A stretch of 64,000 nucleotides of DNA from Thermotogota bacterium ADurb.Bin062. GTDB lineage: Bacteria > Thermotogota > Thermotogae > MWEM01. The translations under genes and the position numbers were made by a program. Location: contig MWEM01000010.1 of assembly GCA_002071085.1 (NCBI GenBank), positions 2,047-66,046 on the forward strand, in the 5' to 3' direction. Below the pieces are notes generated by a model. It saw only the letters and a list, made by a program, of their open reading frames with translations. It had not been told where the DNA came from and made no database searches. Of this stretch, positions 1 to 18,100 are shown piece after piece (position 1 is the stretch's first letter; each line of letters opens with the position of its first letter).

Positions 1-3000
1 CTGGTTGAAAAACTCGAGTTCAGAAGCGGGTAAGCGCTCAGGGGCGAATAGATCCCGGAAATTGCCTCCGGGGGGATCCAACAGGTCTTTCACGTCCTGA
101 TACGTCAGGCTCCAGACGTAAAAGTTGCCGCTCCTTAAAACGGCCATGCGTTTGTTCAGATCGTCTGCGAGACGGTTTCGGTGATAGCTGAACCCGTCGG
201 TATAGATCACGATGGGTAAAAATTGCTCGTCCGAGTCAGGATCGCGCGGGTAGATCACGAAATCCGCGCGCGTTGGTAAGAAGACGCCGTCTTTCTCGGA
301 AAGGAAGGTCTGCGCCGCGATAAAATATCGGTTCTTTCCTATCTGTAGGGTGAACCCTTGGCTTCCGTGGTCGATATCTTCGTAGAGCTCTATCGGCCGT
401 TCCGGAGACGAAGCTTTTTTCAACGCCTCCAAAAACATACGTTCGAGTTCGCTTTCCATCAACGCTCCGGTGTCGATCTCGTTGATCGTTGGGATTGCCA
501 CGAGATGTTCCCGATTGTTCAAGAGGCCCGAGAGGATGTCTATTGCCACTTTTTTAGAGATCGACCCCAGATACCGGCTTTGCTTGTACGCGAACAGACA
601 GCGGTAACATCCGTCGCGCTTGGGTTGGCTGGCGCATTCACACTTGACGAGTACCCGCAGGCACTTATCGAGCATATCGAAGATGGCGTCCGGCGTTTTG
701 CTCAGGTGCTTCAAATACCCCGTGCCTCCCGGTACCGAGTCGTAAAGGACGAGATAGTTTTTCCGATACTCGTTTCCCGGCGCCGGTTCTTCGGTAACGG
801 TCGCTTTCAGATGCTCCACGCTGCCAAAGGTTTCTTTCAGTCCTAACATAACCGCCGCGATGAACGTTTGCTTCACAGTCTCGTTCCACTCGAGGGTCGT
901 CGCGGGGATCAGAATCCGCAGGACCTCGGACTGGAACTCCCGGTAGAGATACACTTTCTGCTCGTAATTGTCAGGATTGGCGTCTCCTGCGGCCGAGCAG
1001 AAAGGGTAATGTTTTCGTTTCTTTTTTTTCGCGAGGCCCTCAGACTGGACCATCCCACAAGATCGGCAGATCCTGAAGCCGTTCCGTTCTTCGCTTCTTC
1101 CGGCGACCATCAAAGACTCGCTTCCGTTGCCCTGTCCGCCAAAGTTGATTTCGCGCAGCGTGGCCTTTCTCACGAATTCGAAACCGAAGGGTTTTTCCAC
1201 ATTCGCCAGCCAATAGGCTTTCAAAACATCTTTGGAGGCGTCCACATCCACGTACAGGTTCCTTCTGAAAAAGGTTTTTTCACGATCGTCGCTCTCGTCG
1301 CCGCTAAAGCTCCTGTCATATTCCTCGGAAGCGAAGACCTGCCGCAGCTTCAACATCGTTCGAACCTGCCCGATGTCCGCCCAAGCGCGGCTGCCGCACC
1401 GTGGGCAACTGCCCGTATGCTCCACGGCGCTGCTCAGTTCCGCGTGCGAACAGTTCGGGCACAGCCGCCACTCCGCTGGTTTCGAAACGCGCGTGTCGAT
1501 CTGGTCGATCACAATTTTCCGGCCCTCGGAGTAGAAGGTGTTTTCGGGCGCGAACTCGGCGATCGCGGAAGCGGCGGGGCGCATATATTCATAAACATAG
1601 TGCTCGTATTTTTTCGTTTCATCGGGCTCGCTGTCATACTCTCGGTTTTTTCCCAATCGTCGATAGATGACCGCTTTCAGCGACACACCGGCCTCCGGGA
1701 ACGCATAGTTCGGGAGCAATCCCTCGTCGGACAGGAAGTTGTAGACGTTCTTCGCGTTGATCGCCTTCTTCACCTCAGCCAGCGCGCCGATCTCTTTTTC
1801 CAGGTCTTTCATTTCCTGCTCCCGACTCGAATCGGTGGGGAGCGCTTTAACTTTCGCGAGCTTGTTCTGGAGGGATGTGATTTGGGCCGTGATCGATTCG
1901 CGCTCAGAGCGAATATCTCTGAAACCGATCAGAATCCTACTGGAGAGGCTGCCTTCGCTCTGGTCAGAATCGTCCGCGAAGGCCTTCAGTTTGGCGATGG
2001 TCTCCTCTTCAAGCGCGGGGCCGAACAGGCTGAAAAAACCTTCGAGCAAACTCTCGCGTTCCTGCCGGATGAATCGGAGCAGATTGTGGGGGAAAACGTC
2101 CTTTTCGGGTTGGTCTATGTTCGCGAGAACGTTAGCGATCGTTTTCGGAACGCTTTGGGCGCCTTTTCTTATTTTTATCCATCGGTCGAAGCAAAAGGCG
2201 AGCAACTGACGCTCCAACACAGCGGATGCGTTGAGGAACACGGCCGGGGGTTTCACCTCGCCGGCGATCATCTCTTTCGGCTCTTCAAAGAAGTACATAT
2301 CGTGGGGAACCAAATTCGTAGCCACGAGAGACAGCGCGTTTCCGTCACGTCGGCCCGCTCGCCCGATACGTTGGAGGAATTGCGTCTGAGCCGGTGGTAC
2401 AGAGCACAGCGCCACAGACGAGAGGTCCCCGATGTCGATTCCCAGTTCCAGCGTAGGTGTGCAGGAAAGCAGGTTCACATCCCAACGTTTCTGCTCAGCG
2501 CGAGTTTTCTTGAACCGTTGCTCCACGTAGGCGCGTCGTTCGGCGCTCACCAGCGACGAATGCTCGGCCGCGTATATGCGGCGGATATCGCCGTTTTCGT
2601 ACAACCGGCGATAGAAGTCGTCCTCGAAGGGCTTTTCCGCGTAGCTGCCGGGGCATCCCGGATGGAAGCAGGGCAAGCCGAGGGCGCTCTCGAGATCGTC
2701 CCCCGGGATCGATAGGGTATGCCCGCACCGGTCACAGGCGATCCGCGCGACGTCGCCCGTCACCCTTGCGTGTTTTGGGGACAGCCCGTAAATCCGTTCG
2801 CGTTTTTGAACCTCCCGTTCCTCGAGGACCTTCGCTCTGACGAACTCCTCTAACAGCCGGGTGAAAACGGGATACACCCTTTCCATATCGAGGGCGGTGT
2901 CGCTTTCAGACGCGCCGTTCAGCGCCCGCAAAGCCCAGCGGAAATAGAGAGAACGGCGCGATAAGTCGTCAAACGCGCCCTTGTGCGACCGCTTTTGGGT

Positions 3001-5493
3001 CATTTCCAAAAACCTCGGGACACGCCGCGCCCGCGTCAATCCCGGCATCCATTTGACTTTATCGCTGGAAAGCAGATAGGCGCTTCCCCCGCTTTCGATA
3101 AACGCGTTCAGTACCTCGGAAAAGATACCCCCGGCGTTTTTCATCCGCAGGAAGAACCCGAACGCGAAATGCGACAAGACGCTCTCCTCCGCGTTCCTAA
3201 ACTCTCCCAACTCGTTGCGAACCCTTTGGATGAAACGATCCAGCGCTTCGGCGTAGGCCTCCCCCGTAAAAGCGAGAACCGAGGACCCGCTCTTTTCCAA
3301 AGTTCGCCCTATTCGGCAGTTAAATCCGTACTCGTAGAGCGCCTCGAGGCGCATTCGGCTGCGGATAGACTGCAGAAGGCGGTCCGTCTGTTCGCTCGCG
3401 GAAGGGAATTTCCCGTGTTCGAGCAAATGCTCGAAGTCGCGAAACCAGGTCATATTCGGCGCGATGAAAGTGGCGGCGAAATCCTCCAGCGTCATCCGCC
3501 GCTCCCAATCCTCGACGAACTCGGTCGTGAAATCCGAAATGCTCTTGTCGGCGCCCGCGGTTTTCAGGTATTGTTGGATCGCCAGCCGAAGGTTGAACCG
3601 CCACGTGCGCGCGTTGAAAAAGCCCGCGCGGTGCGAGGCGTCTTGAACGGAATCTGAAAACGCGAGCAGCTTCTTGTCGTCGTTGAAACGCGAAGCGAAG
3701 AGCTCGGAGATCCCCGCGCTGATCAACGTGGAGTTTTGCGCCCCTATCAGAGTCATACCGCCGCGGCTGCCGCAGATGGGGCAATAAGTGGTCGATTTCT
3801 CTTCGCCGCCCTCCGCATTGGGCCGTTCCAGAAGTACCGGCACGGTCTTCGAGTTTCCGCACCCGGAGCACACAGGCGCTTCGTTCCATTTCAAGCAACG
3901 CGGGCACAGATAGCCGCCCCTGTCCGGGTCTTCCTGAGCCCGTTTTTCAGAAACGGGAAAAAAGTAGGCCGTATGGCGCGAGGAGCTGAAAAAGTCTTCG
4001 TAGAAGCCGCGAAGATCGATGATTTTGGTGTTGAAGGAATCGCTCATCATCGAAACCCAACCGGTCACGCCGCAATCGCGACAGTTCACGACGGGTAGAT
4101 ATTGGCCACGCTCTCCTTCGGTCAAGTCGTCGGAGAGCGCCAAGTCCGGCTTCTCGGGGTCCACTTTCCCCAATAGGCGCCGGAGTTCGCGGAACCATAT
4201 CTGAACGTGTACCTGTAGGATCCGGGCGTATGAAACCAATCCGATCAGGGAGAGAAGCAACAGGTGACGATCGGGTTTGGAATAAAAGTCCAATATCCGA
4301 TTGCGGCGAGATAGCTCGGCGAGGAGCTCTTCATAACTCGACGCCCCGCCTTCCAACGCGCGCAGGAGCTCGTGGAAGAAATAGTGTCCGCGTAAGCGTT
4401 CGCCCATCAGCTCCCGACCTCGCGCGTCGTTATCATCGTCGCCGAGCGTTGCGTCTCCGAACCAGCGGAGGCTCGCCAGGCGTATGAAATCTCGTTCGCT
4501 TCCCGAGGTCATCGCGTTTGCGATCTCCGACAGCGCCTTCTTATCCGGTAGGGCCGTGTATTGAATCTCCGTTCCCCGGAGGAATTCGTCCGCCGTCTGA
4601 CGCTGTTCTCCGATGACGGCATCCTCGGGGAAGGGTTCGCCGAATACTTCGGAGGCGAAGGCGACCATTTCGGTTTGGCTTTGGGCGTCGCCCAGCGTGG
4701 CGGAGGTGCCCACGCAGCACAGGAACCCCTCGGGGATCTCCAGCCGCTTCTTCAACCGCCGAAGGAGGCAGGCGAGGTCCGTGCCCTGCGCGCCGTCGAA
4801 GGTGTGAAATTCGTCGACGACGATGTATTTCAACGTTTCCGGCCCGTTTTTTGACCACAGCGGGAAGTCGTCGGAACGGATCAGCAGGTAGTCGAGCATC
4901 TTGTAGTTGGTGAGCAGGATATCCGGCGGATTCTGGCGCAGCATCTCGCGATCGGTGATCAGCTCTTGCTCCCCCATTCCGCGGGAAGCGCCCGGCCCGC
5001 TATCCCCGGTGTACTTGCCCGCGACGACGTTCCCTTTCAGCTTCGCGTTCCTATAGATCAGCCCCGCGATGCGGCGCGCTTGGTCTGTCGCGAGCGCGTT
5101 CATCGGGTAGATCAGGAGCGCTTTGATCCCTTTTTCGCCCCGATGGCGCCAGCAATGCTCCAGCAGCGGGTAGAGGAAACATTCGGTCTTCCCGGATCCC
5201 GTCCCCGTTGCGACGAGGGTGGAACGCGGGGCCTCCCCCGCCAACCGGTCGAAGGCGCGCTTCTGGTGGAGGTACGGGGCGAAGGGCAGTTCGAGCGCCT
5301 CAAACCAGGGATTCTCTCGCGCAGCCTCTCGGAAAGGCATCCGTAGGGTGACATACGGCCCCTTGAACATCGAGCGGGCATCGAGGAACCGGTCGATGCA
5401 TCCGGCGAAGACCTCGCTCGAGATCGGGAATGTGGTCTTGAGGTACTCGGTCAAACCGCGTTGCAGTTGTTCGCACACGATCGATGGAATCAT
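1..5493 (-). CDS. Giant DEAD/DEAH-box helicase with C-terminal DUF1998 (MrfA/DrmB-type Zn ribbon) and a Vsr/DUF559-like endonuclease tail (fused DrmA-DrmB-like). The 3' end lies beyond the window start, so the protein is longer than 1831 aa. It is absent from the ORF track because it has no in-window stop.
   Basis: Hand translation of the minus strand from ATG at 5493 (RBS GGAGGG 4 nt upstream) gives an open frame all the way to position 1. Walker A VATGTGSGKTE (~5190), LIYPMNALATDQ, DEFH box VVDEFHTF, GTSATL, motif VI QRIGRAGRR (~2360). DUF1998-like Cys cluster ICRSCGMVQSEG...HYPFC (~1050-1075) and LVLYDSVPGGTGYL (~722-750). C-terminal ADFVIYP...IVIYTDGFSYH...DDLNKRMAVLRSGNFYVW matches the DUF559/Vsr fold pattern. 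Confidence 0.8.
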   Translation of the reverse strand, partial: MIPSIVCEQLQRGLTEYLKTTFPISSEVFAGCIDRFLDARSMFKGPYVTLRMPFREAARENPWFEALELPFAPYLHQKRAFDRLAGEAPRSTLVATGTGSGKTECFLYPLLEHCWRHRGEKGIKALLIYPMNALATDQARRIAGLIYRNAKLKGNVVAGKYTGDSGPGASRGMGEQELITDREMLRQNPPDILLTNYKMLDYLLIRSDDFPLWSKNGPETLKYIVVDEFHTFDGAQGTDLACLLRRLKKRLEIPEGFLCCVGTSATLGDAQSQTEMVAFASEVFGEPFPEDAVIGEQRQTADEFLRGTEIQYTALPDKKALSEIANAMTSGSERDFIRLASLRWFGDATLGDDDNDARGRELMGERLRGHYFFHELLRALEGGASSYEELLAELSRRNRILDFYSKPDRHLLLLSLIGLVSYARILQVHVQIWFRELRRLLGKVDPEKPDLALSDDLTEGERGQYLPVVNCRDCGVTGWVSMMSDSFNTKIIDLRGFYEDFFSSSRHTAYFFPVSEKRAQEDPDRGGYLCPRCLKWNEAPVCSGCGNSKTVPVLLERPNAEGGEEKSTTYCPICGSRGGMTLIGAQNSTLISAGISELFASRFNDDKKLLAFSDSVQDASHRAGFFNARTWRFNLRLAIQQYLKTAGADKSISDFTTEFVEDWERRMTLEDFAATFIAPNMTWFRDFEHLLEHGKFPSASEQTDRLLQSIRSRMRLEALYEYGFNCRIGRTLEKSGSSVLAFTGEAYAEALDRFIQRVRNELGEFRNAEESVLSHFAFGFFLRMKNAGGIFSEVLNAFIESGGSAYLLSSDKVKWMPGLTRARRVPRFLEMTQKRSHKGAFDDLSRRSLYFRWALRALNGASESDTALDMERVYPVFTRLLEEFVRAKVLEEREVQKRERIYGLSPKHARVTGDVARIACDRCGHTLSIPGDDLESALGLPCFHPGCPGSYAEKPFEDDFYRRLYENGDIRRIYAAEHSSLVSAERRAYVEQRFKKTRAEQKRWDVNLLSCTPTLELGIDIGDLSSVALCSVPPAQTQFLQRIGRAGRRDGNALSLVATNLVPHDMYFFEEPKEMIAGEVKPPAVFLNASAVLERQLLAFCFDRWIKIRKGAQSVPKTIANVLANIDQPEKDVFPHNLLRFIRQERESLLEGFFSLFGPALEEETIAKLKAFADDSDQSEGSLSSRILIGFRDIRSERESITAQITSLQNKLAKVKALPTDSSREQEMKDLEKEIGALAEVKKAINAKNVYNFLSDEGLLPNYAFPEAGVSLKAVIYRRLGKNREYDSEPDETKKYEHYVYEYMRPAASAIAEFAPENTFYSEGRKIVIDQIDTRVSKPAEWRLCPNCSHAELSSAVEHTGSCPRCGSRAWADIGQVRTMLKLRQVFASEEYDRSFSGDESDDREKTFFRRNLYVDVDASKDVLKAYWLANVEKPFGFEFVRKATLREINFGGQGNGSESLMVAGRSEERNGFRICRSCGMVQSEGLAKKKKRKHYPFCSAAGDANPDNYEQKVYLYREFQSEVLRILIPATTLEWNETVKQTFIAAVMLGLKETFGSVEHLKATVTEEPAPGNEYRKNYLVLYDSVPGGTGYLKHLSKTPDAIFDMLDKCLRVLVKCECASQPKRDGCYRCLFAYKQSRYLGSISKKVAIDILSGLLNNREHLVAIPTINEIDTGALMESELERMFLEALKKASSPERPIELYEDIDHGSQGFTLQIGKNRYFIAAQTFLSEKDGVFLPTRADFVIYPRDPDSDEQFLPIVIYTDGFSYHRNRLADDLNKRMAVLRSGNFYVWSLTYQDVKDLLDPPGGNFRDLFAPERLPASELEFFNQ

Positions 5494-5592: not shown

Positions 5593-8500
5593 TTACAACC
5601 CGCGCCTCTCGAACTCACGCCAGGCGACGGCGTAATCGGTCTCGCGGTCGGCGAGGGTGAAAGGCGCGAAATAGCGCACCTCGCGTTCGAAGGGCCCGCC
5701 GGGCCGGGTATCGTCCTTCACCATCCTCGAACAGCTCTCACCGTCCTTCAGTTCCTGCAGGGCCTCCCACTCGGAGCGTTCCCGAAGCCCGACGCCGGTT
5801 AGCCCTTTGCTGTTCGTCCACACAATCCGACCCTTCCGATCATAGTAGGTGTCCTTCTCATACTGCCGCATCACAGGAAACTGGATCCGGTAGATGGAGA
5901 TCAGCTCCTCCAAGGTCAATCCCAGCGCCATCGCGGTGAGGACGTCGATTTCCACGAGCGCCTGGCGACGCGCGTAGTCGTAGCGCAACGCGTTGTGGCG
6001 CTGCCAGGTGGGGGTGAGGTTCCGGAAAAAATCCCGGTCGAGCCGCGGGTCCTCGCTCGTCCAGGTATCTTTCTGAAACCGGGGATCGAACAGTTCCTCC
6101 CACAACTCGGCATAAGGGGTCGTGAGACAGTTGAGGGTGAGGGCGCGTGGAAGCGCGTATAGAAAACGAGAGTCGTCTTCCAAATAGAACAGGTCATCGA
6201 CATTCCCGGTAGTAAAATCTTCTTTTCCGCTGGTTTTGACGAAAAAGTCACTGAGAAGGGAACAAGCCGGAACGAAAGCTTGAAGCAGGCGCCGCGGTTC
6301 CAAGAAAAAGGTAGATATCACGGTATGCACATGGGCTATATTTTTGGGTATCAACGCGGAGATGAAGGTTCTTTCTCCAAATTGGCTCAACCGCCTCCGA
6401 TGGATCATTCGGAAATAATCGGTCACAAGATCGGAACGGTTCCCCTGGTTAAGACTCCATTTCGCGGTCGGAATGCGGTTCTGGTAGAGCATTCTGTCTG
6501 GCGCCGGAACATAATTCGTTCTCGGCAGATAATCGTCGGGGAGTTCGGCGAGATCGAGAGGATCGTAATGACCCTTCTCTGTGCATATAGCCCTCGGCGT
6601 TTTGTAAAAAGGCGTTCCCACGTGAAAATGTGGGCCGGAAAGGATCAGTTCTTCCGCGGTCTTAGGAAAGATGGTCTCTCTTTTGATCGTGCCGTCCTTT
6701 TGGGCGTTGGTTTCATCCCACATTACAGTAGAGTGGTATTCGCCTTTGAGATCCCTCAGGCGATGCGGATAGGCGGCGAACTTCTTCAACACGCCGACGA
6801 TGGGTTGGGCGTGTACGGAGGGGAGTTTCGACTCCAAGGGGGGTGTCCCCTCCTCGTCGAAAAGTTGACTGAAGACCGTTAGCGCCCCTTCATCCACGTG
6901 CACGACCCTTAGATGATGACCTTTCAAGTTCCATTCATCCTGTTCGTTCTTGATTCCCTCAAGCGGTTCATCGCCTTGATGGTCGAAGGAATCATCGATC
7001 GTCTTTGGTAAAAATAGGTTGGAAAGACTGTCAAAAGATATCTCGTGAAAATTGGATTTGTAGATGTTAATCCCATATTTGACTCGGTGCCCAATTGGGA
7101 AAAGCATATATTGGTTTTGAAATTGAAAATGATACCGCAACCGCGGATAGAGCTCGCGGCGCAGCGCGCCGCCTTTCGCGTCGTCATACACCCCTTCCGG
7201 ATGGAGGAAGCCCTGGACGCCGTTTCGGTTCGCGAAGAGCCAGCTCTGCGGTAGAAAGCACTTGAACAGGTTCGACTGTGATCCTTGAAGGAGCGGGTAG
7301 TTCTGGACAGCGTTGAGGAAGCCCTTCGTCGCCTCCATCGTTTCATACTCCCGCACGTAGTCCTCGAGCAGCTCCGGCTGGCGCTCGAAACTGTCGTTCC
7401 GTAGTTTACTGACCTGATCGGCGGAGTATTTCCGGATCGCGAAGAGCGGTTCCGCGTCCGAGAGGATCCCGCCCTCCTCCCATCCCAGTTTGATCCAAGG
7501 GGGGTTCCCAAGGATGAGGTCGAAGCCTCCGCGCTCGTCGAAAACGTCGGCGAACTCCAGCTCCCAATGGAAAAAGGCGATCCGTCGCGCGACCTCGCGT
7601 ACCACGCGCAATGGCTCGAGCTTTTCGCAGAGCGCGTCCAAATCCACGAGGTCCAGGTCGGAAAAGAGCGTCTGCAACTGTTTTTCCGCGTCGTTCTCGA
7701 CGAACAGGGGTCGCTGCGCGGGCGCGGTCGGTATCAGATTCACTTCGAGGATGAGCGAGAGGTGCATCAGGAACTCCGAACGCGACGGCAACAGATCGGC
7801 CTTATCGATCGGCCAGAACCATAGCGCGCACCAATAGTCCATCGCTAACTTCAACCGGGCGTATGGGCCGGCGTTCTCCATCTTTTCGGTATGAAAGAGG
7901 CTCTCGTAGATCGCGTCCTTCTCTTTCGTCGTGTACGGACGGCGGCGCGCCTTCTCCTCGTGTCCAAAGATGGATATCGCGCTCTCGGTGAGCTCTTCGA
8001 CCTTTTTTCGCGCCTTCAGGTGTTTTTCCCAGAGGAGGTCGACCTGGTCGCTCAGCCGCTGCAACGTTTTGATCTCTTCCGCGTCGTAGGGTCGAGAGAA
8101 GTCTTTGTTCCACTCTTTGAACCGCTTGAGTTCTTCGGCTTTCAGTTTTTTGACGACCTTGTCCTCGTACGTCGCCATCGCAGGATCCGCGAGCAGGAAG
8201 TGATAGACGCTGCCCGCCGGTCTCGTCGTTTTCGGTTCCACGCGTTCGGGGGCGACGGTGTGCCACTGTTTCTCCTTCTTCTTCTCCCGAATCTGATCGG
8301 GACGGTAGACCTGTCGGCGCGCGCCGATCAGGGAATTGCCGTTCATCAGCTGCGTTCTGAACCACGGAACGTAGCCGCCCTTGTAGATCGTGTTCAGCCA
8401 GACGGAGACCTCCGCCAACTCCACGGCGATCGGGTTCAGGTCGATTCCGTAGACGTTCCGGTCTGACAGGCGCATCTTGACCTTCTGCTTTTCTTCCGCG

Positions 8501-10281
8501 TACCGGTCCACTGCGATCGTTTGCCCCGTCTCCCGCTGTTTCAGCTGTAAATAGGCTTCTGCGAGTTGCGTGACCGCTTCGTTGATGAAGGCGGCGCTGC
8601 CCATCGCGGGCTCGCAGATTTTGAGTTCGAGGATCTCGTCGGCGGTTTTGTCTTTCAACAGCTCTTTCAACGCGTATTTGACGAGGCATTGGGTGAGCGT
8701 TTCCGGCGTGTAGTACGAAGCGGACTTTTCTCGTTCCCTGCCCGCCAACCGGTAGATGAACGTGCCTTTCGGGTACAATTTCAGGCTGCCGTCGGGGTTG
8801 CGTACCCGCTCCGTTTCTTCGTACTCTTCGAGCCGCGAGGCGGGGACGAAATAGCCGACTTGCAGCTCATCCCACGATTCGCCTTTCGGCTGTACTTCGT
8901 AGAGGTCTTCCTCGGCGAAGAAGCCGCGGTAGCTCAGCAGCCCCTCGTAGACGGCGCCAAGCTGGTTGATCCCCAGGTGGGAGTAGGAAACGCGTCCGGC
9001 ACGCTCCCTTCCTCGCGGCCTCGTGATCGACATTTCGCGGATGACGTCGCGCAGCGTTTCGTTCCTAAAACGCGCGCGGTTTAAGAGGGGCGTTCTTTCC
9101 GGATCGAAGAGGTGGGACTGCAGCGGCGGAATCTCGAAGGCGTCCGCGCCGACGCCTTCCAAGCCGAGCGCCTCGGCGCGAGCGGTTTTTACCGTTCCGT
9201 TGCGTTTCGGATACCCTTCGTAGATCAACGAAAAGAGTTTTTTCAACGACGTGTCGAGGAAATAGCCGTTTCGACTTTCCTCGCCCTCCAACCGAACCTT
9301 GTCGACGAGGTCGCGGAGGCTCTCGAAGCTGTATCCCTTCATATAAACGTCCGATTGGACCGGCGCGTATTCCAGCTCTTTCCGTGATTCGATGAAAAGG
9401 ATGAAAAGGATCCGGTACATAAAGCGCAGGCACTCGAGGGTCAGCTGCTCCGCGAGGTCGGTATCGTACACCTTCACCTTCTGCCGCTCTTTCATATCCC
9501 GCACCGCGTCGTTGCCCAACCATTCGATGCATCGGCGCAGCGCGTATTTCAAGTCTTCGGACACGGATATCGCGTGTTTGTGGGAGGTGTCGTCGAAACG
9601 GTCCAGCAGGGGTTCCCCATCGAATGGGGCGAGGCTTGACTTGTCCAGCAAAACGGCCATCGCTTGGAAGGTCGTGTCCTCGCGCCGCGCGTAGATTTCA
9701 TCCAAAATGAACTGGAAGAACCGCTTTTCGTTCCACTTGTACCGGTCGAGCAGCGCGATCTCGCGCATCGAGCAGAGGATGACCCAACGGGGCGGCTCCG
9801 GCGCGTTGAAGATGTACCGGTTCAACGCCTCTTCGTAGTCGCAATCGGGGAAGGCCTCCGCAACGCTTTCGAGCGCGCTGCCGTTATCGGTTTCATCTGT
9901 TTCTATCAGCAAGAGGTAGGGCGCGCCGTCGGGTTTTCGCAGGATTTGCCATACAGGTACCGTGATCCCGTCGTTTCCGATGAACTCTTCATCCGCCTCC
10001 GAGAATAGAAAACCCAGGGCGCTGAACAGCTCTTTCAGAAACGAGCGCCGTATTTCACGCCGTCGGTGTTCGTCGCGCTCGCGCGTGTACTCGTCGAGTC
10101 GGTTGAAGTACGCCCTACCCAGGGACTTGATCTTGCGCCAAGGCTCCTTCTCTTCCGACTCCTGGGCCTGCGCCTTCCACATCGACAGCGCTTCTCGGAT
10201 GTTTTCCTCGAAAATCGTGCTCAGGTAGTGCGCGGTGTAGTATTCGTTCACGTTGTGGATACCGGACAGGTCGATCGCCAT
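5593..10281 (-). CDS. Large gamma-class N6-adenine DNA methyltransferase (PglX / DrmMI / Eco57I-like), 1562 aa.
   Basis: AdoMet motif I ICEPAMGSAAF (~8592-8618) precedes catalytic motif IV GNPPW (~7497-7511). N-terminus MAIDLSGIHNVNEYYTAHYLSTIFEE resembles PglX/DrmMI-type enzymes. RBS GAGGGGAG 4 nt upstream of the ATG. The upstream SNF2 gene's TGA stop lies inside this RBS. Confidence 0.8.
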   Translation of the reverse strand: MAIDLSGIHNVNEYYTAHYLSTIFEENIREALSMWKAQAQESEEKEPWRKIKSLGRAYFNRLDEYTRERDEHRRREIRRSFLKELFSALGFLFSEADEEFIGNDGITVPVWQILRKPDGAPYLLLIETDETDNGSALESVAEAFPDCDYEEALNRYIFNAPEPPRWVILCSMREIALLDRYKWNEKRFFQFILDEIYARREDTTFQAMAVLLDKSSLAPFDGEPLLDRFDDTSHKHAISVSEDLKYALRRCIEWLGNDAVRDMKERQKVKVYDTDLAEQLTLECLRFMYRILFILFIESRKELEYAPVQSDVYMKGYSFESLRDLVDKVRLEGEESRNGYFLDTSLKKLFSLIYEGYPKRNGTVKTARAEALGLEGVGADAFEIPPLQSHLFDPERTPLLNRARFRNETLRDVIREMSITRPRGRERAGRVSYSHLGINQLGAVYEGLLSYRGFFAEEDLYEVQPKGESWDELQVGYFVPASRLEEYEETERVRNPDGSLKLYPKGTFIYRLAGREREKSASYYTPETLTQCLVKYALKELLKDKTADEILELKICEPAMGSAAFINEAVTQLAEAYLQLKQRETGQTIAVDRYAEEKQKVKMRLSDRNVYGIDLNPIAVELAEVSVWLNTIYKGGYVPWFRTQLMNGNSLIGARRQVYRPDQIREKKKEKQWHTVAPERVEPKTTRPAGSVYHFLLADPAMATYEDKVVKKLKAEELKRFKEWNKDFSRPYDAEEIKTLQRLSDQVDLLWEKHLKARKKVEELTESAISIFGHEEKARRRPYTTKEKDAIYESLFHTEKMENAGPYARLKLAMDYWCALWFWPIDKADLLPSRSEFLMHLSLILEVNLIPTAPAQRPLFVENDAEKQLQTLFSDLDLVDLDALCEKLEPLRVVREVARRIAFFHWELEFADVFDERGGFDLILGNPPWIKLGWEEGGILSDAEPLFAIRKYSADQVSKLRNDSFERQPELLEDYVREYETMEATKGFLNAVQNYPLLQGSQSNLFKCFLPQSWLFANRNGVQGFLHPEGVYDDAKGGALRRELYPRLRYHFQFQNQYMLFPIGHRVKYGINIYKSNFHEISFDSLSNLFLPKTIDDSFDHQGDEPLEGIKNEQDEWNLKGHHLRVVHVDEGALTVFSQLFDEEGTPPLESKLPSVHAQPIVGVLKKFAAYPHRLRDLKGEYHSTVMWDETNAQKDGTIKRETIFPKTAEELILSGPHFHVGTPFYKTPRAICTEKGHYDPLDLAELPDDYLPRTNYVPAPDRMLYQNRIPTAKWSLNQGNRSDLVTDYFRMIHRRRLSQFGERTFISALIPKNIAHVHTVISTFFLEPRRLLQAFVPACSLLSDFFVKTSGKEDFTTGNVDDLFYLEDDSRFLYALPRALTLNCLTTPYAELWEELFDPRFQKDTWTSEDPRLDRDFFRNLTPTWQRHNALRYDYARRQALVEIDVLTAMALGLTLEELISIYRIQFPVMRQYEKDTYYDRKGRIVWTNSKGLTGVGLRERSEWEALQELKDGESCSRMVKDDTRPGGPFEREVRYFAPFTLADRETDYAVAWREFERRGL

Positions 10282-10290
10282 AAGCTCCCC

Positions 10291-12504
10291 TCATTCGCTC
10301 AGGAGAAGGGCAACCACGCGGATATAGGGGTTGTCTTTCTCGAGCTTCATCGTGTTTACGAGCCAATGTTGAAATTCATTGAATATCTCATCAATCCGAC
10401 GCTTTTCTATCTCGTAGCGCTGGGCGTTCCTTCCGTCAGATCTGTCGTAACTCTGAAGCAGGTCGTCGTGTTTCTTTCGCAGCTCTTTAAGCTTCGCGAT
10501 TTCTTCATCGAGTTTCGGGGTCATCGTCTCTTCGAACTCCTCTTGCTCCGCTTTCATTTTTTCCTTTGCCAGGCCAATCGCCGTCGGCAGTAACTTAGCG
10601 GCCCAATCCGAAACTTCTGCGTTCCTCGAGGCCTGGTTCGGAAGCGCGCCTTTGAATACGTCTGAACGGAGAAAATCCTCCGGGGACAAAAACTCGGCGG
10701 GGTTATCTTCAACGAAGCGGATGACGAACCATCGGTCGATAACCGGCTCGGACTGTCGATTCGGAATCAACCCGGAGATGATGAAGACGGCGGTCCGCTT
10801 CTCCGCAAAGGGGACGAAAAGTACCGGCGCCTCCTGCCTTCCGAAAAACAGCCCCGCTTTATCGTTCATCCAATCGATGATGGGGTGAAGCGGCCAGAGG
10901 TAGTGCGAGCGCGGCCACGTGTCTTGCGCCTTCTGTCGGCTTTCTTTGATCTCACGCATCAGCGCTTTCTTGTCCGTCGTCAGGCGCAACCAGTCGTCGC
11001 TCGGAAACGCCTCCTCGGGTATCTGCGGCTCCAGCGACCGCTTCATCGATTCGGACATCCGGATTTCCATCACGTCGACTCGTGGGGCTTCCAGAGGTAT
11101 GGTTTCCCTGTTAGAGATCGTTTCCAAGAGGGTTTTCAGATAACTCGTTTCGTCAAACAGGGTCACGGGATCGGCCTTTTCGACGTTCGTCGCCTTCGCG
11201 GCTTCGTCGGGAAGGTTCCAACCCGCGTTCATCATCGCCAAAAACGGGTTTTCGGGAGCCGATAGCAGGCGCTCGAAAGCATTCACGCTGAGGCTCTTTT
11301 CGAAAACGCGGGCTACCGTCCGTTCTTCCTCTTCCACATCGTACCGCCCCAAGAGGGAGGCGGGGTCGCCGATATTCTTTTCCGCCTGCTCTTCCTTATC
11401 GATGAGTATTTCCAGGATGCGCATATCCCCGCGAATGCGCTCGTTTTTCGCTTTGGTCACCAGATAGCGGATGTCCGGCGTTTTTTCTTGGCCGTACCGG
11501 TCGATCCGGCCGTTCCGCTGTTGGAACACCATCAGTGACCACGGGATGTCGAAATGGATCAGGCGATGGCATAGAAAATGGAGGTTGATGCCTTCGGACG
11601 CCACGTCGGAGGCGATGAGGAGACGAACGGGGGAGTCGGTCGCGCCGAACTCATCGACCGCCTGCTGTTGGTCCACATCGCTCATACCGCCGTAAAGACA
11701 GGAGAGTTGGCCATCGCTCAGCCGGAGGTCCTCTTTCAGGCGTTTGGCCAAAAACCTCATCGTCTCGATTCGTTCCGTGAAGATGACGAGGCGGTCGTCC
11801 GGGCGCTCGCGATTCCAACCGTATTCGGGGCTTTGGAGCAGGCGGACCAGAAGGCGGTATCGTGAAAAATGCTCGGGTGTGATTTTTTTCAAATGGTCGA
11901 TGAGGGTCTCTAGAGCGCGGATATCGGAGGCGCTCTCGGACCGCCCCTCTTTTTTCAGTCTATTGATGCGCGCCTGCGCCGTTTTTTCGCAGGCGACCGG
12001 TGAGGAGAAGAGGGACTTTTCCAGCAGCGTTTTAAACAGCATGGTCTCCCCGCGAGCGGGGTCGATCCAGGTGAGATTGAGAGTCTCGAAAAAGTCGTAG
12101 AACGCTTCTTCTAACGGGGACGCCTCGCACGTTTCCCGACTGATCACACGTTCCTTGAAATGGGCGGAAACCTGGTTCTGCACATCCTTTTTGAATCTGC
12201 GGAAGACCATCCCTTGGATGTCCTCGCGCCGGTAGTCCTCCTCGTTGGCGATGGCGGTCGGCTCCAACATATTCATCAAGGAGGCGAAACTCTGCGGGCG
12301 GCCATCGTGAGGAGTCGCCGACAGGAGGATGAGCGTGTCCGAGCGTTTGGAGAGCAATTCGGCGAGGCGGGACCGTTGCGCTTGCGTTTTGCCACGTCGC
12401 GCGACGTTGTGCGCTTCGTCGATCACGATGATGTCCCACCGGGTTTTTTCGAGCAGCGTTCGGTACTCGCGGTCCATCTTCAGGGTGTCGATCGAAATGA
12501 TCAC
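10291..12504 (-). CDS. SNF2-family helicase (DrmD-like), C-terminal fragment (motifs II-VI). The gene is interrupted by a frameshift.
   Basis: DEAH box WDIIVIDEAHNV, LLSATPHDG, HELICc-type region ...LIASDVASEGINLH...QRNGRIDRYGQ. The frame stays open and SNF2-like (IQRIRANIPTNHNPFYYFDKVIISIDTL) upstream of the annotated GTG, as far as the T5 tract at 12615-12619. Confidence 0.75.
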   Translation of the reverse strand: MIISIDTLKMDREYRTLLEKTRWDIIVIDEAHNVARRGKTQAQRSRLAELLSKRSDTLILLSATPHDGRPQSFASLMNMLEPTAIANEEDYRREDIQGMVFRRFKKDVQNQVSAHFKERVISRETCEASPLEEAFYDFFETLNLTWIDPARGETMLFKTLLEKSLFSSPVACEKTAQARINRLKKEGRSESASDIRALETLIDHLKKITPEHFSRYRLLVRLLQSPEYGWNRERPDDRLVIFTERIETMRFLAKRLKEDLRLSDGQLSCLYGGMSDVDQQQAVDEFGATDSPVRLLIASDVASEGINLHFLCHRLIHFDIPWSLMVFQQRNGRIDRYGQEKTPDIRYLVTKAKNERIRGDMRILEILIDKEEQAEKNIGDPASLLGRYDVEEEERTVARVFEKSLSVNAFERLLSAPENPFLAMMNAGWNLPDEAAKATNVEKADPVTLFDETSYLKTLLETISNRETIPLEAPRVDVMEIRMSESMKRSLEPQIPEEAFPSDDWLRLTTDKKALMREIKESRQKAQDTWPRSHYLWPLHPIIDWMNDKAGLFFGRQEAPVLFVPFAEKRTAVFIISGLIPNRQSEPVIDRWFVIRFVEDNPAEFLSPEDFLRSDVFKGALPNQASRNAEVSDWAAKLLPTAIGLAKEKMKAEQEEFEETMTPKLDEEIAKLKELRKKHDDLLQSYDRSDGRNAQRYEIEKRRIDEIFNEFQHWLVNTMKLEKDNPYIRVVALLLSE

Positions 12505-13118
12505 CTTATCGAAATAGTAAAATGGGTTATGGTTCGTCGGAATGTTGGCGCGAATACGTTGGATCCCTCGGGAGTCCAGCCGTTTGAGCGGAATGGTGAA
12601 CCGGTCCAGAGTTCTTTTTGGAGCTGGAGCATCATACTTTTCAGCGCGACGACGAGGATACGTTTCCCTTTACCGCGCGCGATCAGCTCGCTCATCAACA
12701 CGCCGGCTTCGAGCGTTTTCCCGAGGCCGACACCGTCTGCCAGCAGAATGCGTTGACGGGGCCGGGCTAAGGCGCGCTGGGCGGGCTCCAGTTGGAAATC
12801 GATCACATTCATCGCCGCTTTGTGCCCGATGCGCAAGACGTTTCCCGGCGGGGTTCGTCGACGCAGGAGGCTCTCGATGTAGAGCCGCGACTTCCTAAAC
12901 ATCGGCGACCGGTCGACAACGAACTGGGTATCAGCCGGATCGATCACGCGTATCTCCTCGAGATCGGACAGGAACGCGGCCTCCTGCCCACGCACAAAAT
13001 CGGAAACGCCCGTCACGCTTAAAATGTATTTCCTATCCGCGTTGTAATCGGCCCGCCGAACTACCCACTCCTCACCGCGTACCTGTATCCGCATACCGGG
13101 CGCGTATATCTGTGTCAT
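12501..13118 (-). CDS. SNF2-family helicase (DrmD-like), N-terminal fragment (motifs I-Ia). Reading is lost after ...LQLQKELWT at an A5/T5 homopolymer.
   Basis: Walker A LADGVGLGKTLEAG, motif Ia ILVVALKSMMLQLQKELW. Adding one base in the T5 run (12615-12619, plus strand) joins this frame to the downstream fragment and gives a continuous SNF2 protein. Confidence 0.7.
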   Translation of the reverse strand: MTQIYAPGMRIQVRGEEWVVRRADYNADRKYILSVTGVSDFVRGQEAAFLSDLEEIRVIDPADTQFVVDRSPMFRKSRLYIESLLRRRTPPGNVLRIGHKAAMNVIDFQLEPAQRALARPRQRILLADGVGLGKTLEAGVLMSELIARGKGKRILVVALKSMMLQLQKELWTGSPFRSNGWTPEGSNVFAPTFRRTITHFTISIR

Positions 13119-13170: not shown

Positions 13171-15186
13171 CTATACCTTCCAGAAAGAGAAGAGCATGAA
13201 CACGATCAACGCCACCCATTGGCTCGCGAATACCATCAATTGAAAGAAGTAGGTGCGATCCATCTTTTCTTTGACGCGCTTCTCAAGGGCAGTTAGGCGG
13301 TCATCGAAGGCCTGTTGTTTCTCGGCCGTTTTCTTTTCCAGTTCATCGAGCGCGGTCAGAGCGCTCTCGAACGCGGCGGTTTTTTCGGTCAGGGTTGCGA
13401 TCGACTCGCTGTAATGGCCTTTCAGCAGCTTAGGTAGGGCTTCAACGGTTTTCTGCGTTAAAACCGCGAGGTTTCGGGAATCCTGGAGAGAGGCGTGGAC
13501 ATTTTCATCCATCTCTCTCAGGGCATCCAAAGTCTCCCGATTTCCTTCGCCAAACGACGCAATGAGGTTGCCAAGCTTGCGGTCAACCGTTGACACGAAT
13601 GCGGGATCCAGCCGTGATAAACCGGTTTTCTCATCAACGAGCGAGCGCAGGCGTGCGCCCAAGTCGCCGGTCGAATCGGCGAGGCGCTTCACCAAGTCAG
13701 AAAACTCGGCGTGCTCCGCGCGGTCGTGCTCCCGTTGATTTGCGGCCTCTTCGGCTAATTGCCGTATCGCGGTTTGAATTCCACCGCTCTCAGTATTGAT
13801 TTTGCTTGTGTTTTCGAGCAGTTCGGTGTATGTCGAGCTGATCAAATCGGCGAGTTCTTTCGTTAAGCTGGACAGCCCGGCGATTTCCGCGCGGCCGCGC
13901 TCCCGTTGATTTGTGGCATCTTCGGCTAACTGCCGTATCGCGGTTTGAATTCCACCGCTCTCTTCATAGATTTTACGCGTGTTTTCCAACAGTTCGAGCT
14001 GCGCTACGCCTGCCGATTCGGCAAGATCTTTCACCAGGCCGGACAACTCAGTGAGTTTTGCCAAGTCGTGCTCCCGTTGACTCGCGGTCTCCTCAGCTGC
14101 TTGCCGTATCGCGAGTTGAATTTCACCGCTCTCTTCGCTGATTTTGCTTGTTTTTTCGAGCGACTCGGTTTGTCTTGAGCTGGTCGATGCGGCAAGTTCC
14201 TTAACCAATCCGGCTAACTCGGCTACTTCTGTTCGATTCTGTTCCCATTGACTCGCGACCTCTTCGGATACTTTCCGTATCGCGGTTCGTATCACACCGC
14301 TTTCTTCATTGATTCTTCTTGAGTTTTCAAGCAATTCAGTGTGTGTGGAACTGATCAAATCCGCGAGTTCCTTCGCCAAGTCGGATAGCTCGGCGAGATT
14401 CGCGCAGCTGTGTTCTCGCTGTTTCGCGGCTTCCTCGGTTGCTTCGCGAATAGCGGTATGAAGCTTCTCGCTTTCCGTATTGCCCCTTCGGGCATTCTCG
14501 AGCATTTCCGCTTGCGTGGCGCCAAATGATTCCGCGAAGCCCTTCACCAAGCCGGACAGCCCGGCGATTTCCGCGCGATCGTGTTCACGTTGATAAGCGG
14601 CGCCTTCGGCTAACTGCCGTATCGCGGTTTGAATTCCACCGCTCTCTTCATAGATTTTACGCGTGTTTTCCAACAGTTCGAGCTGCGCTACGCCTGCCGA
14701 TTCGGCGAGATCTTTCACCAAGCCGGACAACTCAGCGAGTTTTGCCAAGTCGTGTTCCCGTTGATCAGTGGCCTCCTCAGCCGCTTGCCGTATCGCGGTT
14801 TGAATTCCACCGCTCTCTTCACTGATTTTGCGCGAGTTTTCAAGCAATTCAGTGTGTGTGGAACTGATCAAATCCGCGAGTTCCTTTGCCAAGTCGGCAA
14901 GCTCGGCGATATTCGCGCAGCTGCGCTCGCGCTGTTCGGCTGCGCCTTCGGTTGCTTTTTGTAACGCAGCGTGAAGTTCGCCACTTTCCGTATGGATTCT
15001 GCGCGTGTTTTCCAATAGTTCGGCGTACTTGGCGTTGAGCTCTCGGACGGACAGCGTGAACTCGTTCAAAACGGCAACGAGCTCGTTATCCGCGTTTCCC
15101 AGCGAAAAACCCTCCTCTAGCCTTCTTTCTTCGTTTCCATCGATATCATTCATTCGCGCCCTCCTTCGAGCATTTCTTCTATCCAT
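13171..15186 (-). CDS. Tail-anchored coiled-coil protein built of ~45-aa tandem repeats with a C-terminal transmembrane helix. The start is probably the ATG at 15153.
   Basis: Repetitive low-complexity sequence (...LAELSGLVKDLAESAGVAQLELLENTRKIYEESGGIQTAIRQLAE... repeated more than 6 times). C-terminal hydrophobic FFQLMVFASQWVALIVFMLFSFWKV. RBS GAAGGAGGG lies 5 nt before the ATG at 15153 and inside the 3' end of the upstream helicase gene. Confidence 0.7.
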   Translation of the reverse strand: MDRRNARRRARMNDIDGNEERRLEEGFSLGNADNELVAVLNEFTLSVRELNAKYAELLENTRRIHTESGELHAALQKATEGAAEQRERSCANIAELADLAKELADLISSTHTELLENSRKISEESGGIQTAIRQAAEEATDQREHDLAKLAELSGLVKDLAESAGVAQLELLENTRKIYEESGGIQTAIRQLAEGAAYQREHDRAEIAGLSGLVKGFAESFGATQAEMLENARRGNTESEKLHTAIREATEEAAKQREHSCANLAELSDLAKELADLISSTHTELLENSRRINEESGVIRTAIRKVSEEVASQWEQNRTEVAELAGLVKELAASTSSRQTESLEKTSKISEESGEIQLAIRQAAEETASQREHDLAKLTELSGLVKDLAESAGVAQLELLENTRKIYEESGGIQTAIRQLAEDATNQRERGRAEIAGLSSLTKELADLISSTYTELLENTSKINTESGGIQTAIRQLAEEAANQREHDRAEHAEFSDLVKRLADSTGDLGARLRSLVDEKTGLSRLDPAFVSTVDRKLGNLIASFGEGNRETLDALREMDENVHASLQDSRNLAVLTQKTVEALPKLLKGHYSESIATLTEKTAAFESALTALDELEKKTAEKQQAFDDRLTALEKRVKEKMDRTYFFQLMVFASQWVALIVFMLFSFWKV
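13748..14960. repeat. Intragenic tandem direct repeats (~135-bp unit with a 684-bp higher-order period) inside the coiled-coil gene. 13920-14032 and 14604-14716 are 100% identical over 113 bp.
   Basis: Direct comparison of the sequence lines. ttcggctaactgccgtatcgcggtttgaattccaccgctctcttcatagattttacgcgtgttttccaacagttcgagctgcgctacgcctgccgattcggc occurs twice. The sub-motif ctgccgtatcgcggtttgaattccaccgctctc recurs about 6 times. Confidence 0.9.
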
Positions 15187-18100
15187 TCTACCGCATATTT
15201 CCTCTTTAGTATCTCATGATACCTTTGGTTGGTGTAGTTACGCAAACAGCCGTAACAAGAGGAATCCCCCTCTTCGCCCCCACATAGGCAACCCTTTAAA
15301 AAGGACTCGGTAAGCTTGAGGATTCCCTCGAACGCTCCATCTTCCATACACCAGCGTATGTGACCGGCGCCCCCCGCGACGTTGTCGAACAGAAGCAAAT
15401 TCGGATACGACCTGCCCTCCACGGGAAAGACGATTCCATCGAGGTCGTTCCGGTCTATGTCCAGGAACAGGCTAACCCCCTCTAAAAGCGCGTAGAGGAT
15501 AGAAAGCCAGTATTCTTTCTCATCGTTTGTCCGTTTATTTTCCGGAGGGGTGATCTCCAATATTTCCGTTTTAAACTGGTAGCCGAGCGCTTTTCTACGG
15601 GCGATCTTTCCTGGGCACCTCTTGCCTTGAGGGTTATTGTGCTCTCTTTCCAGCGTCTTTTTGGCGTCGGAGTAACCGCAAGCCAAACAAACGTTGAACC
15701 CCCGCGGGCCGCCGGGATTGATGGTCACCAAATTGCCCAACATCGTTTTCAGGTGAACCGGATACCTCAGCAGGAGGGTTTTTTCTTCGATGGTGTACTC
15801 TTCTTTCCCGAGCAGGCAGCGCGTTTGAGAGAGCTGTGTCTTCTTTATCACACCCGCTTTCTCGGGCTGTCCGGAGATGAACCCAAACTCGGGGAAAAGG
15901 TAATCGCCAACGTTTAACTGACTGCCGCAAATCTTGCACGTCTTGGTTGTCGAGCGCTCCTTGATCGACACCTTCGAAAACCCGCATTTTCGGCAGAAGG
16001 CATAACTCTCCTCGATCAACGCCTTGTCGGGCACTTTCTTGATATACTGCGTCGACCACTTCTGCTTGTTCGCGTAGACGGGATTGTCCGGCGCATATTC
16101 CCAAAGGGCGGTTTTCATATCCCGCGAGAGCTCCAAGTCGTCCATCTTTTCGTCGAAGGGCGCCATCAATTCTATGACGTCGACCGGAAACCCGTAGCGA
16201 GGTAGAATCCCTTTTCCGGCCAGGTATTGCATGAGATTACGGCCTAAAAGGGTTTGCACCTTTCTATGGAGCGTGTCCGCTTTTCTGAAGGTTCTCTTTT
16301 TGGTCGCCGCATCGATCAAGTCCGTCAAGACCCGTATGTCTTCTTTCAATTCTTTGCCGATGTGGTAGAGAGAAGCGTGCGTAACCGGAGAATCGGAAAA
16401 CAGGAGGTACGCCCAGGGCAAAAATTGTTTTTGGCGCAGCTCGTGTTCGGTAGCAGGAATGGTCTCTCGTATCGTTTTGTCCAGCTCCTCTTGATGCGTC
16501 GCGACGAAGTGTTCGAAGCGCGCGACCCCTTCGAGGTCATCGTCCGTTTCCGGAAAAAAGAAGGCCTTCACGTCTTTGAAATGGTTCGGATACTGACGCC
16601 AATACTCGGCCAATGCGATCGCGGCCATATGACGATAGCGTATTTTCTCGTTTTCCAGCACAAAGGAAGGCGGGGCAATCTCGCCTTTAATCATTTTTTC
16701 CGGGTCGCTAAAGAAGTAACGGTCGTGAGGCCTTCGTAACGCGTAGGTGAGAATGAAAGCCGGATTGGAGGTTCTCCTGCCGGCCCGCCCTGCCCTTTGC
16801 AGGTAGTTCGACGCGGTTGGGGGCACGTTTTTGAGAAAGATCGTGTCCAAATCCCCGACGTCCACGCCTAACTCGAAGGTCGTCGAGCAGCTGAGGATCT
16901 GTATTTTTTTATGATAGAAGTCTTCTTGAAACTCCCGCGCTTTTTCATATTTAAGCTGGGCTGTGTGCTCTTCCACTCGAAGCGGGGAGAGCTCGAGCGT
17001 GCGGTACAAGTCTCGGTAGTGGTTAGGGCCTAACGCCGAAAAGTTCGTCTCCCTCACCGTCCCTTGACATCCATAAGAAGGACAGACCCCCCGTACCGCA
17101 AAAAAGAAAAGTTCTTTACACCGATCACATTGGTAAAGTTTCATATCCGGAGTCAGGAGCGGCGAAAGGATTTCCAGGGCGTCTATCTTCAATCGCTTCC
17201 CGCTTTGGTTGCGCTTTGTAAAAGAGGTTTCGAAACAGTCCCTCCAATCCGGATGGTCGAATTCTTTCCAAATCCATTGAAGTAACTCCGGGACCTCCTC
17301 CTTTCTCGCTTTTGGAAATAGGCGGCGTAAATAATCGGAGCGCGCGTTTTCGAAACGATAGGGGACCCAACTTTTCACGCCTGCTTGGGTTTGCGCCGAC
17401 AGCGTCATCAACGTTTTCAAATTCCTCGGCGCGAAAAACTCGTGTTCGGGTTCTATGTCCGGTAAGTAGGTCAAAGCGCCGCACTTTCTGAAACTGGAAA
17501 GTAAGAGTTGATACAGGCTGTGGGCCTCTTCCGGAGTCAAATTCCAAGGCGCGTTCAGGAGCGGGCTTCGCTTTTCGAGAGACTCGTAGAGTCCTTTGGA
17601 AAGAGGGACCTTGAAGCCCAGGAGCCCGGCGCCTTCGAGACCCGTGCGCCGATCGTAACTCATCGCTTCGTATTGTGTCCATAGGTAAGCGGTCGTCTCT
17701 ATTGTCTGCTTATCCATTTGGTAGTCTTCCGGGAGGCGTTTTTTGGCGAATTCCGCCAGGTTTTTGACGATCCAATCGTTCTCGATGGCCTTTTCTCGAT
17801 AGGTTTCGAGCGTGTTCACCAAAATGCGCCTCCAGAAGATCCTGTCATAACTCTCTTGAAGGTACGGCGCGAAGTACGCCGCGCCTTGGCGACTGTCCGA
17901 AAAGACGATAAAGCCGTTTTGCCGCTTCCTTTCTTCGGGAGACAGGCCGCTATACAGGTTCTGAAAGAGGGCCGTGGCGATAACGCTTCCCGAGGCGTCC
18001 GCCCCGTCTAAAAACCGCCAAAGAACGGGGGTTAGACTTGATTGCGCGCCGCAATTCAAGCACTTGTTCACGCGTCCTTCCTTCGATTTTGCCTTTTTTG

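Follow-up and report, generated by a model that had tools for sequence, protein, structure and literature searches.

The 64,000-nucleotide stretch of DNA that we analyzed (the window; contig MWEM01000010.1 of Thermotogota bacterium ADurb.Bin062) opens inside a gene for a giant helicase that lies beside genes for an SNF2 helicase and a DNA methyltransferase. Which defence system does this helicase belong to, and does it carry a nuclease? The initial annotation described a DISARM-type fusion of DrmA and DrmB with a Vsr-like nuclease tail. We find instead that, very probably, the gene is armC, its product the helicase-nuclease effector in a type II ARMADA system (armA-armB-armC-armD) that belongs to an uncultured Thermotogota bacterium (Table 1).

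Reading Frame, Length, and Domains of the Helicase

Translation confirmed that the minus-strand frame from position 5493 to position 1 is unbroken. It comprises 1831 codons with zero stops, an outcome with a probability of about 10^-30 given the base composition of the region. The proposed ribosome-binding sequence GGAGGG is indeed found 4 nt upstream of the ATG at 5493. All motifs that had been read by hand are in place: GTGSGKT at residue 97, DEFH at 227, QRIGRAGRR at 1041, ADFVIYP at 1743, VIYTDGFSYH at 1762, and, in the C-terminal segment, DDLNKRMAVLRSGNFYVWSL at 1777. As the initial annotation had recognized, the gene is missing from the ORF track because its frame runs off the window. 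Two plus-strand ORFs that are listed in this region, 358-846 and 868-2715, had been dismissed as antisense artefacts. Both exist, and neither has a Pfam match. The GC content by codon position of ORF 868-2715 (0.70/0.41/0.58) is the mirror image of that of the minus-strand gene (0.58/0.42/0.72), which argues that the plus-strand ORFs are artefacts. ORFs that run off the edge of a window drop from such tracks, and antisense ORFs can mask them.

The 3' end, which the initial annotation proposed to recover from a longer contig, is available on two metagenome contigs (L004 and L005, 197 and 179 kb). Their ArmC is identical to that of the window over the first 1831 residues and continues for 266 residues past the window edge up to the stop, giving a full-length protein of 2097 aa. 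The exact ArmB protein is likewise recorded on many metagenome contigs, according to an exact-protein look-up. Public records assign these exact proteins to uncultured Thermotogota MAGs, ADurb.Bin062 among them, and label them generically, for instance as "DEAD/DEAH box helicase". A single-protein search for related loci returned zero relatives among species genomes.

Pfam finds the DEAD, Helicase_C, and MZB/DUF1998 domains in one frame, as expected for the predicted SF2 helicase with a DUF1998-type region. On an isolated 300-aa segment of ArmC, the PF09369 match improves to 2.1e-10. A BrxA-like domain and a zinc β-barrel have been assigned to the region between RecA1 and RecA2 of ArmC (PMC12458937).

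Table 1. Predicted Features of the Helicase Gene and Its Neighbors in the Window (Names as Assigned in This Work)
Feature	Position	Strand	Residues	Basis or remark
armC, 5' 87% of gene	1..5493	-	1-1831 of 2097	YprA-family helicase-nuclease; ATG 5493
Start of linker into edge-cut C-terminal region	1..78	-		beyond: middle α/β domain and second Vsr-like fold
Putative Vsr-type (PD-(D/E)xK superfamily) nuclease domain	79..456	-	~1680-1805	fold and profile-profile comparison
MZB (DUF1998) zinc-binding domain	595..816	-	1560-1633	Pfam PF09369, 3.1e-9
Motif VI, QRIGRAGRR	2347-2373	-		motif position
RecA2 / Helicase_C	2347..2568	-	976-1049	Pfam Helicase_C, 5.7e-8
Large RecA1-RecA2 insertion	2614..4596	-	~300-960	no Pfam match
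Four CxxC motifs in insertion	3769-4086	-	471-574	motif positions
RecA1 / DEAD domain	4690..5268	-	76-268	Pfam DEAD, 6.7e-22
DEFH	4804-4815	-	D227	motif position
Walker A, GTGSGKT	5185-5205	-	K102	motif position
armB, PglX/DrmMI-like N6-adenine DNA methyltransferase	5593..10281	-	1562 aa	NPPW at residue 926
armA, BrxHII/DrmD-like SNF2 helicase, frameshifted	10291..13118	-	205 + 737 aa	two ORFs

An ARMADA Type II Operon

ARMADA type II systems have a strict gene order: ArmA (BrxHII/RapA-like), ArmB (PglX-like), ArmC (YprA-like), and ArmD, in which a RelE-like domain is fused to a GajB/UvrD helicase (PMC12458937). The literature presents ArmC as similar to a DrmAB fusion that bears vsr-type nuclease domains (PMC12458937; PMC13463889, mBio 2026), and the initial annotation comes very close to the wording of the mBio paper. 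The C-terminal Vsr nuclease is predicted to be active, and inactive EEP and Vsr domains often come after it (PMC12458937).

With the annotated E. coli locus druH-druE-armABCD as a reference, we compared every protein by BLAST. Over its readable length, the Thermotogota helicase is colinear with E. coli ArmC (1-1803/1-1805) with 37.6% identity and 1231 bits (NCTC 12900 / ATCC 8739 / EDL933; WP_000937974.1; PMC12458937, PMC13463889), whereas E. coli DruE aligns over two core segments only, with 124 and 98 bits. RecA1, insertion, RecA2, MZB, Vsr-type nuclease, and further C-terminal domains follow in the same order in both ArmC proteins.

The neighboring genes point in the same direction. ArmB is 44.6% identical to E. 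coli ArmB over the full length; in PADLOC it matches a type IIG model (5e-273) and DrmMI (1.6e-57). The two SNF2 pieces match residues 4-174 and 208-947 of E. coli ArmA, with 42-56% identity over 4-947, and the armA product matches DrmD in PADLOC (3.8e-65). Contigs identical to the window show what lies past its edge: directly downstream of ArmC they code for a UvrD-family protein of 721 aa. It shares 44% identity with E. coli ArmD, and the two align colinearly from residue 7 onward, through the toxin-like domain at the N-terminus, for which Pfam gives a weak ParE_like match (E 0.042). With ArmD recovered, the ARMADA II set of four genes is complete and in canonical order. In three further, diverse homologue loci a UvrD helicase of about 700-740 aa is also encoded immediately after the ArmC gene.

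The resemblance extends beyond the four genes, as the E. coli locus also has a DruE-like helicase module directly upstream of the same armA-armB-armC-armD series. In the Thermotogota locus, however, armA is frameshifted, and the neighboring DruE-like helicase is without a nuclease domain and is accompanied by other partner genes. The protein itself stems from a Thermotogota MAG, not from Enterobacteria, and is divergent in sequence, with 2097 aa compared with 2113 aa for E. coli ArmC.

The locus carries ARMADA type II into an uncultured Thermotogota lineage of anaerobic digesters, which by itself adds little. The design of ArmC, a helicase with a Vsr-type nuclease, was published in 2025-2026, so the novelty implied for the combination of helicase, DUF1998, and nuclease does not hold; the protein described here is an ArmC that has diverged to 38% identity with the characterized one.

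A Frameshift in armA and the State of the System

In E. coli, deletion of any arm gene abolishes protection, and defence is direct and non-abortive (PMC12458937, PMC13463889). In the Thermotogota locus, a 1-nt deletion near 12605 splits armA between Walker A (GLGKT) and DEAH. By tblastn, homology to E. coli ArmA switches frame at 12603-12618. The site reads CTC TGG ACC GGT, and CTC TGG ACN CGG TTC would restore "LW(S/T)RF", similar to "FWSRF" in E. coli. A programmed -1 slip at CAAAAAG, which would restore ArmA, was another possibility but is unsupported, since the 0-frame reading past this site, "KELW", continues to match "KEFW" of E. coli; the lesion is thereby placed at ACC^CGG. Since the same split occurs in three independent assemblies (L003-L005), one of them from a diverged strain, we take the break to be real.

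Since armA is frameshifted and E. coli requires ArmA for defence, the ARMADA system may currently be switched off or disabled in the Thermotogota organism. In a stronger form, the locus as a whole would be decaying and non-functional, the armA frameshift having recently switched off defence while armC persists. We consider this a tentative but credible reading. The deletion parts the two ATPase motifs of ArmA, it recurs across the assemblies just mentioned, and deletion of armA or mutation of either motif abolishes E. coli defence (PMC12458937, PMC13463889). On the other hand, armB, armC (2097 aa), and armD are intact with conserved motifs, and the frameshift persists in strains that have diverged elsewhere. 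The two ArmA pieces could also work as such, or translation could restore the frame. In a more elaborate proposal, armA would be functional, either as a two-piece SNF2 motor or through the frameshift as an on/off switch; ARMADA and the upstream trio, made up of a 1182-aa protein, the nuclease-less DruE-like helicase, and an apparently membrane-anchored protein of 57-aa repeats, would form a composite; and strain variation in the insertion domains would mirror an arms race against phage inhibitors. We judge this proposal to be unlikely.

ArmC Rather Than DrmA or DruE

The initial annotation got the anatomy right: one chain combines a Vsr-type fold with an SF2 helicase and a DUF1998/MZB domain, and its gene has SNF2 and methylase genes of DISARM-like character as neighbors. 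The assignment to a DISARM-type family did not survive. A class 1 DISARM system with fused DrmA-DrmB, in which an acquired Vsr-like nuclease has replaced the separate PLD nuclease DrmC, is a very improbable description of this locus. It would account for the neighbors that resemble DrmD and DrmMI in PADLOC, for a single chain holding the content of DrmA plus DrmB, and for the literature description of ArmC as similar to a DrmAB fusion (PMC13463889). The SNF2 and methylase genes are indeed homologous between class 1 DISARM (PMC9142583) and ARMADA (DrmD/ArmA and DrmMI/ArmB), but ARMADA shares both by definition, and the helicase core and DUF1998 are common to both systems as well. What separates them is their distribution: the helicase, DUF1998, and PLD nuclease of class 1 DISARM are separate proteins, whereas the helicase core and DUF1998/MZB domain are found here in one polypeptide, as in ARMADA II. 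In the YprA family OB-CON-DUF1998 is typically found fused, and DISARM is the exception in being split; the YprA tree groups ArmC with Druantia (PMC12458937). The polarity implied by the word "fusion" is therefore reversed. The DISARM reading is also at odds with the profile matches. In PADLOC the helicase matches DruE1 (9.7e-109, in several partial stretches) and DruE3 (8e-103), whereas DrmA reaches only 3e-17 against DruE values of the order of 1e-109; the NCBIfam model DISARM_DrmAL has no match in this protein. Finally, the colinearity of the helicase with ArmC extends from end to end, and a RelE-UvrD ArmD, a gene that DISARM lacks, follows it.

The least probable reading is that the protein is the DruE of a Druantia system, as the top PADLOC match implies and as might be expected from the closest solved structure, E. 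coli DruE (9tu7, 1e-50): the similarity is limited to the helicase and MZB cores, with a small fraction of the bit score obtained with ArmC, the nuclease is Vsr-like and not PLD-like, the flanking genes are ArmB and ArmD and not DruH, and a separate DruE-like gene lies at 15150-19946. The defence library that labels ArmC as DruE, PADLOC-DB 2.0 (2023), is older than the description of ARMADA (2025). The type III-A Druantia DruE (9tu7) does belong to the same clade of the YprA family as ArmC, and it too is a giant helicase with an MZB domain and with a nuclease region fused at the C-terminus. It differs in having PLD-like nuclease domains and a DruH partner, where ArmC has a Vsr-like nuclease and, as partners, a methylase and two helicases of the SNF2 and UvrD types. 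Taken by sequence, the helicase is best described as an ArmC orthologue rather than as DruE or DrmA.

A Vsr-Type Nuclease Domain within ArmC

We turned to the question as to whether the segment after the MZB domain is indeed a nuclease. The Pfam match that the initial annotation anticipated did not materialize: PF03852 (Vsr) and PF04480 (DUF559) give zero matches in the ArmC of the window even at E ≤ 10. The assignment rests instead on fold and profile-profile evidence. The related model PF18741 (REase_MTES_1575) is matched weakly by 5 of 33 homologues (best E 0.0049), and a profile of these 33 homologues compared with PDB sequences found no nuclease. A confident AlphaFold2 model of residues 1672-1831 (pLDDT 85.6, pTM 0.75) gave weak matches when compared with the PDB by Foldseek, the best being TnsA (E 3e-3).

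Profile comparison with Vsr, for which the query sequence was identical to 1cw0_A, pairs RADFVIYP...IVIYTDGFSYH of ArmC with RPDFVVDEY...CVIFTHGCFWH of Vsr (E 3e-4, probability 39%). With enriched alignments, the comparison covers 75 columns, including the next helix and strand (E 1.6e-4, probability 50%), although the Vsr profile gained little diversity by this enrichment, as the homologue search returned only near-identical enterobacterial sequences. In this pairing D1744, T1765, D1766, and H1771 of ArmC correspond to D51, T63, H64, and H69 of Vsr. The modeled domain combines a restriction-endonuclease-type fold with the Asp equivalent to Vsr D51 and with a T-H/D-G-x-x-x-H segment. The structure-based tests are positive but modest, and the profile comparison likewise supports a Vsr-type nuclease domain in ArmC.

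The predicted catalytic set consists of E1684, D1744, T1765, D1766, H1771, D1778, and R1782. Each of these residues is conserved in 98-99 of 99 homologues, and all are kept in the window copy. One near-invariant Glu is replaced in the window copy (A1726); the E. coli ArmC, which is functional, also lacks this Glu. When 1.84 billion representatives were searched with a profile, 1084 clusters were returned. Full-length members (~2070-2190 aa), in every case listed, have the domain at ~1670-1850, with ~290 residues behind it. This conservation of the predicted active site across such distance, together with the fixed position of the domain in more than 1000 protein clusters, supports the Vsr-type domain as a putative effector nuclease.

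The domain also departs from its closest known relatives, the Vsr endonuclease, DUF559, and the catalytic domain of I-Bth0305I (PDB 1cw0, 3hrl, 3r3p). The Pfam models for Vsr and DUF559 miss it, it has Asp at the position of Vsr His64, and it sits inside a 2097-aa helicase, whereas Vsr is a stand-alone mismatch-repair enzyme of about 150 aa.

The claim of a Vsr-like nuclease tail needs one correction. The fold is predicted in the same chain as the helicase, but it does not form the C-terminus, because about 290 residues follow, 266 of them past the window edge. A model of the C-terminus of a homologue (P0042), used as a proxy, predicts a second Vsr-like fold, with scores of 6.9 for AbaSI, 6.1 for 3hrl, and 5.4 for Vsr, and no EEP match.

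Proposed Mechanism

[quoted passage not shown] The ATPase mutants K110A and D234N of E. coli ArmC lose defence (PMC12458937), and protection is also lost with K136A and D236N in ArmA and with NPPW mutants of ArmB (PMC12458937, PMC13463889). For ArmC, neither PMC12458937 nor PMC13463889 describes mutants of the nuclease domain or assays of nuclease activity. The best mechanistic analogue of ArmC is DruE, a 3'-to-5' helicase that loads on exposed single-stranded DNA (bioRxiv 10.64898/2026.05.13.724758).

By analogy with DruE and DrmAB, ArmC would load where invading DNA exposes single-stranded regions, and it would translocate 3'-to-5' using ATP. The Vsr-type domain, which is likely the effector nuclease of ArmC, would then cut the DNA, with D1744, T1765, D1766, and H1771 as the predicted metal-dependent active site. 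Methylation by ArmB presumably serves as the self mark on host DNA, with ArmA and ArmD possibly acting as accessory motors.

Strain Variation and the Upstream Genes

Comparison of the window with L003-L005 limits the strain differences to the insertion regions of the helicases. Against L003, 28 of 29 mismatches fall within 3112-3525 (ArmC residues 657-794, in the insertion). Against L004 and L005, all 13 mismatches are located within 17469-19139. The substitutions are of mixed types, and the pattern is consistent with recombination patches. We also considered a diversity-generating retroelement as the origin of the variable patch in ArmC. Since the substitutions are mixed and not adenine-specific, this candidate was rejected.

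The gene at 15150-19946 codes for a second YprA helicase of 1598 aa, which PADLOC identifies as DruE (1e-170). The protein ends immediately behind its MZB domain, and a nuclease domain is missing. A nuclease-less branch termed "Druantia type III-like" has been mentioned (PMC12458937), and this helicase fits that description. The two proteins encoded at its flanks, of 1182 and 671 aa, have no known match and no similarity to DruH. The 671-aa protein consists of about 7-8 tandem repeats of 57 aa and has a hydrophobic helix at its end, which is apparently transmembrane.

A Second YprA-Family Helicase

Besides ArmC, the YprA-family helicase-nuclease of the ARMADA type II system, the window encodes a second giant member of this family (Table). 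This 1598-residue protein matches the Druantia helicase DruE in PADLOC (1e-170) and the E. coli DruE structure (PDB 9tu7, 1e-71). It is about as distant from E. coli DruE as from E. coli ArmC. Since its C-terminal end lies just past the MZB domain, it carries no fused nuclease.

Features of the defense island and the rest of the window
Feature	Position (nt)	Strand	Remarks
armA break	12501-12660	minus	1-nt deletion at about 12605 (ACC^CGG)
671-aa ORF	13171-15186	minus	called as 660 aa in metagenome records
1598-aa YprA-family helicase	15150-19946	minus	DEAD, Helicase_C, MZB
1182-aa protein	19936-23484	minus	position of DruH in E. coli
PAS/histidine-kinase/receiver hybrid	30800-34123
DinG/XPD-type helicase	37055-39400
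FGE-sulfatase-family protein	40076-41146

No similarity could be detected between the 1182-residue protein and either E. coli DruH, the partner of DruE, or the partner encoded at locus L007 from another assembly, and Pfam, NCBIfam, PADLOC and PDB gave no match to it. On the other side, the start of the 671-residue ORF overlaps the stop of the DruE-like gene. This ORF contains a tandem repeat with 6.9 copies of a 171-nt (57-residue) unit (13665-14850), and its product ends in a hydrophobic C-terminal helix that is probably transmembrane. No match to this protein was found in Pfam, NCBIfam, PADLOC or PDB. The region from 24000 to 64000 contains no tRNA gene and, where sampled, looks like ordinary chromosome (Table). 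No integrase was seen among its scanned ORFs, so a mobile-element context of the defense island is not established.

Strain Differences and Gene Integrity

Compared with otherwise identical metagenome contigs, mismatches in the window are limited to the insertion regions of both helicases (3112-3525 and 17469-19139). Of 29 mismatches with contig L003, 28 fall in ArmC residues 657-794 (16 non-synonymous and 10 synonymous codons). All 13 mismatches with L004 and L005 lie inside the DruE-like gene. Substitutions of mixed types suggest that these differences are recombination patches.

The single-nucleotide deletion in armA separates the gene into two ORFs of 205 and 737 codons, leaving the Walker A motif (GLGKT) on one side of the break and the DEAH motif on the other. 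Three metagenome assemblies, independent of each other, carry the identical break, so sequencing error in the window does not account for it. In E. coli, ARMADA defense requires ArmA (PMC12458937, PMC13463889).

In other assemblies (L006, 7683-13900; L007, 2094-13246), the armC gene is either called in pieces (773 + 1299 residues) or joined in part to the methylase gene (2654 + 1081 residues). Such calls may be the reason why homologues listed in the first protein search had lengths of only 700-1400 residues. In L006, an OLD-TOPRIM/UvrD (Gabija-like) pair sits between armB and armC, and integrases are found downstream.
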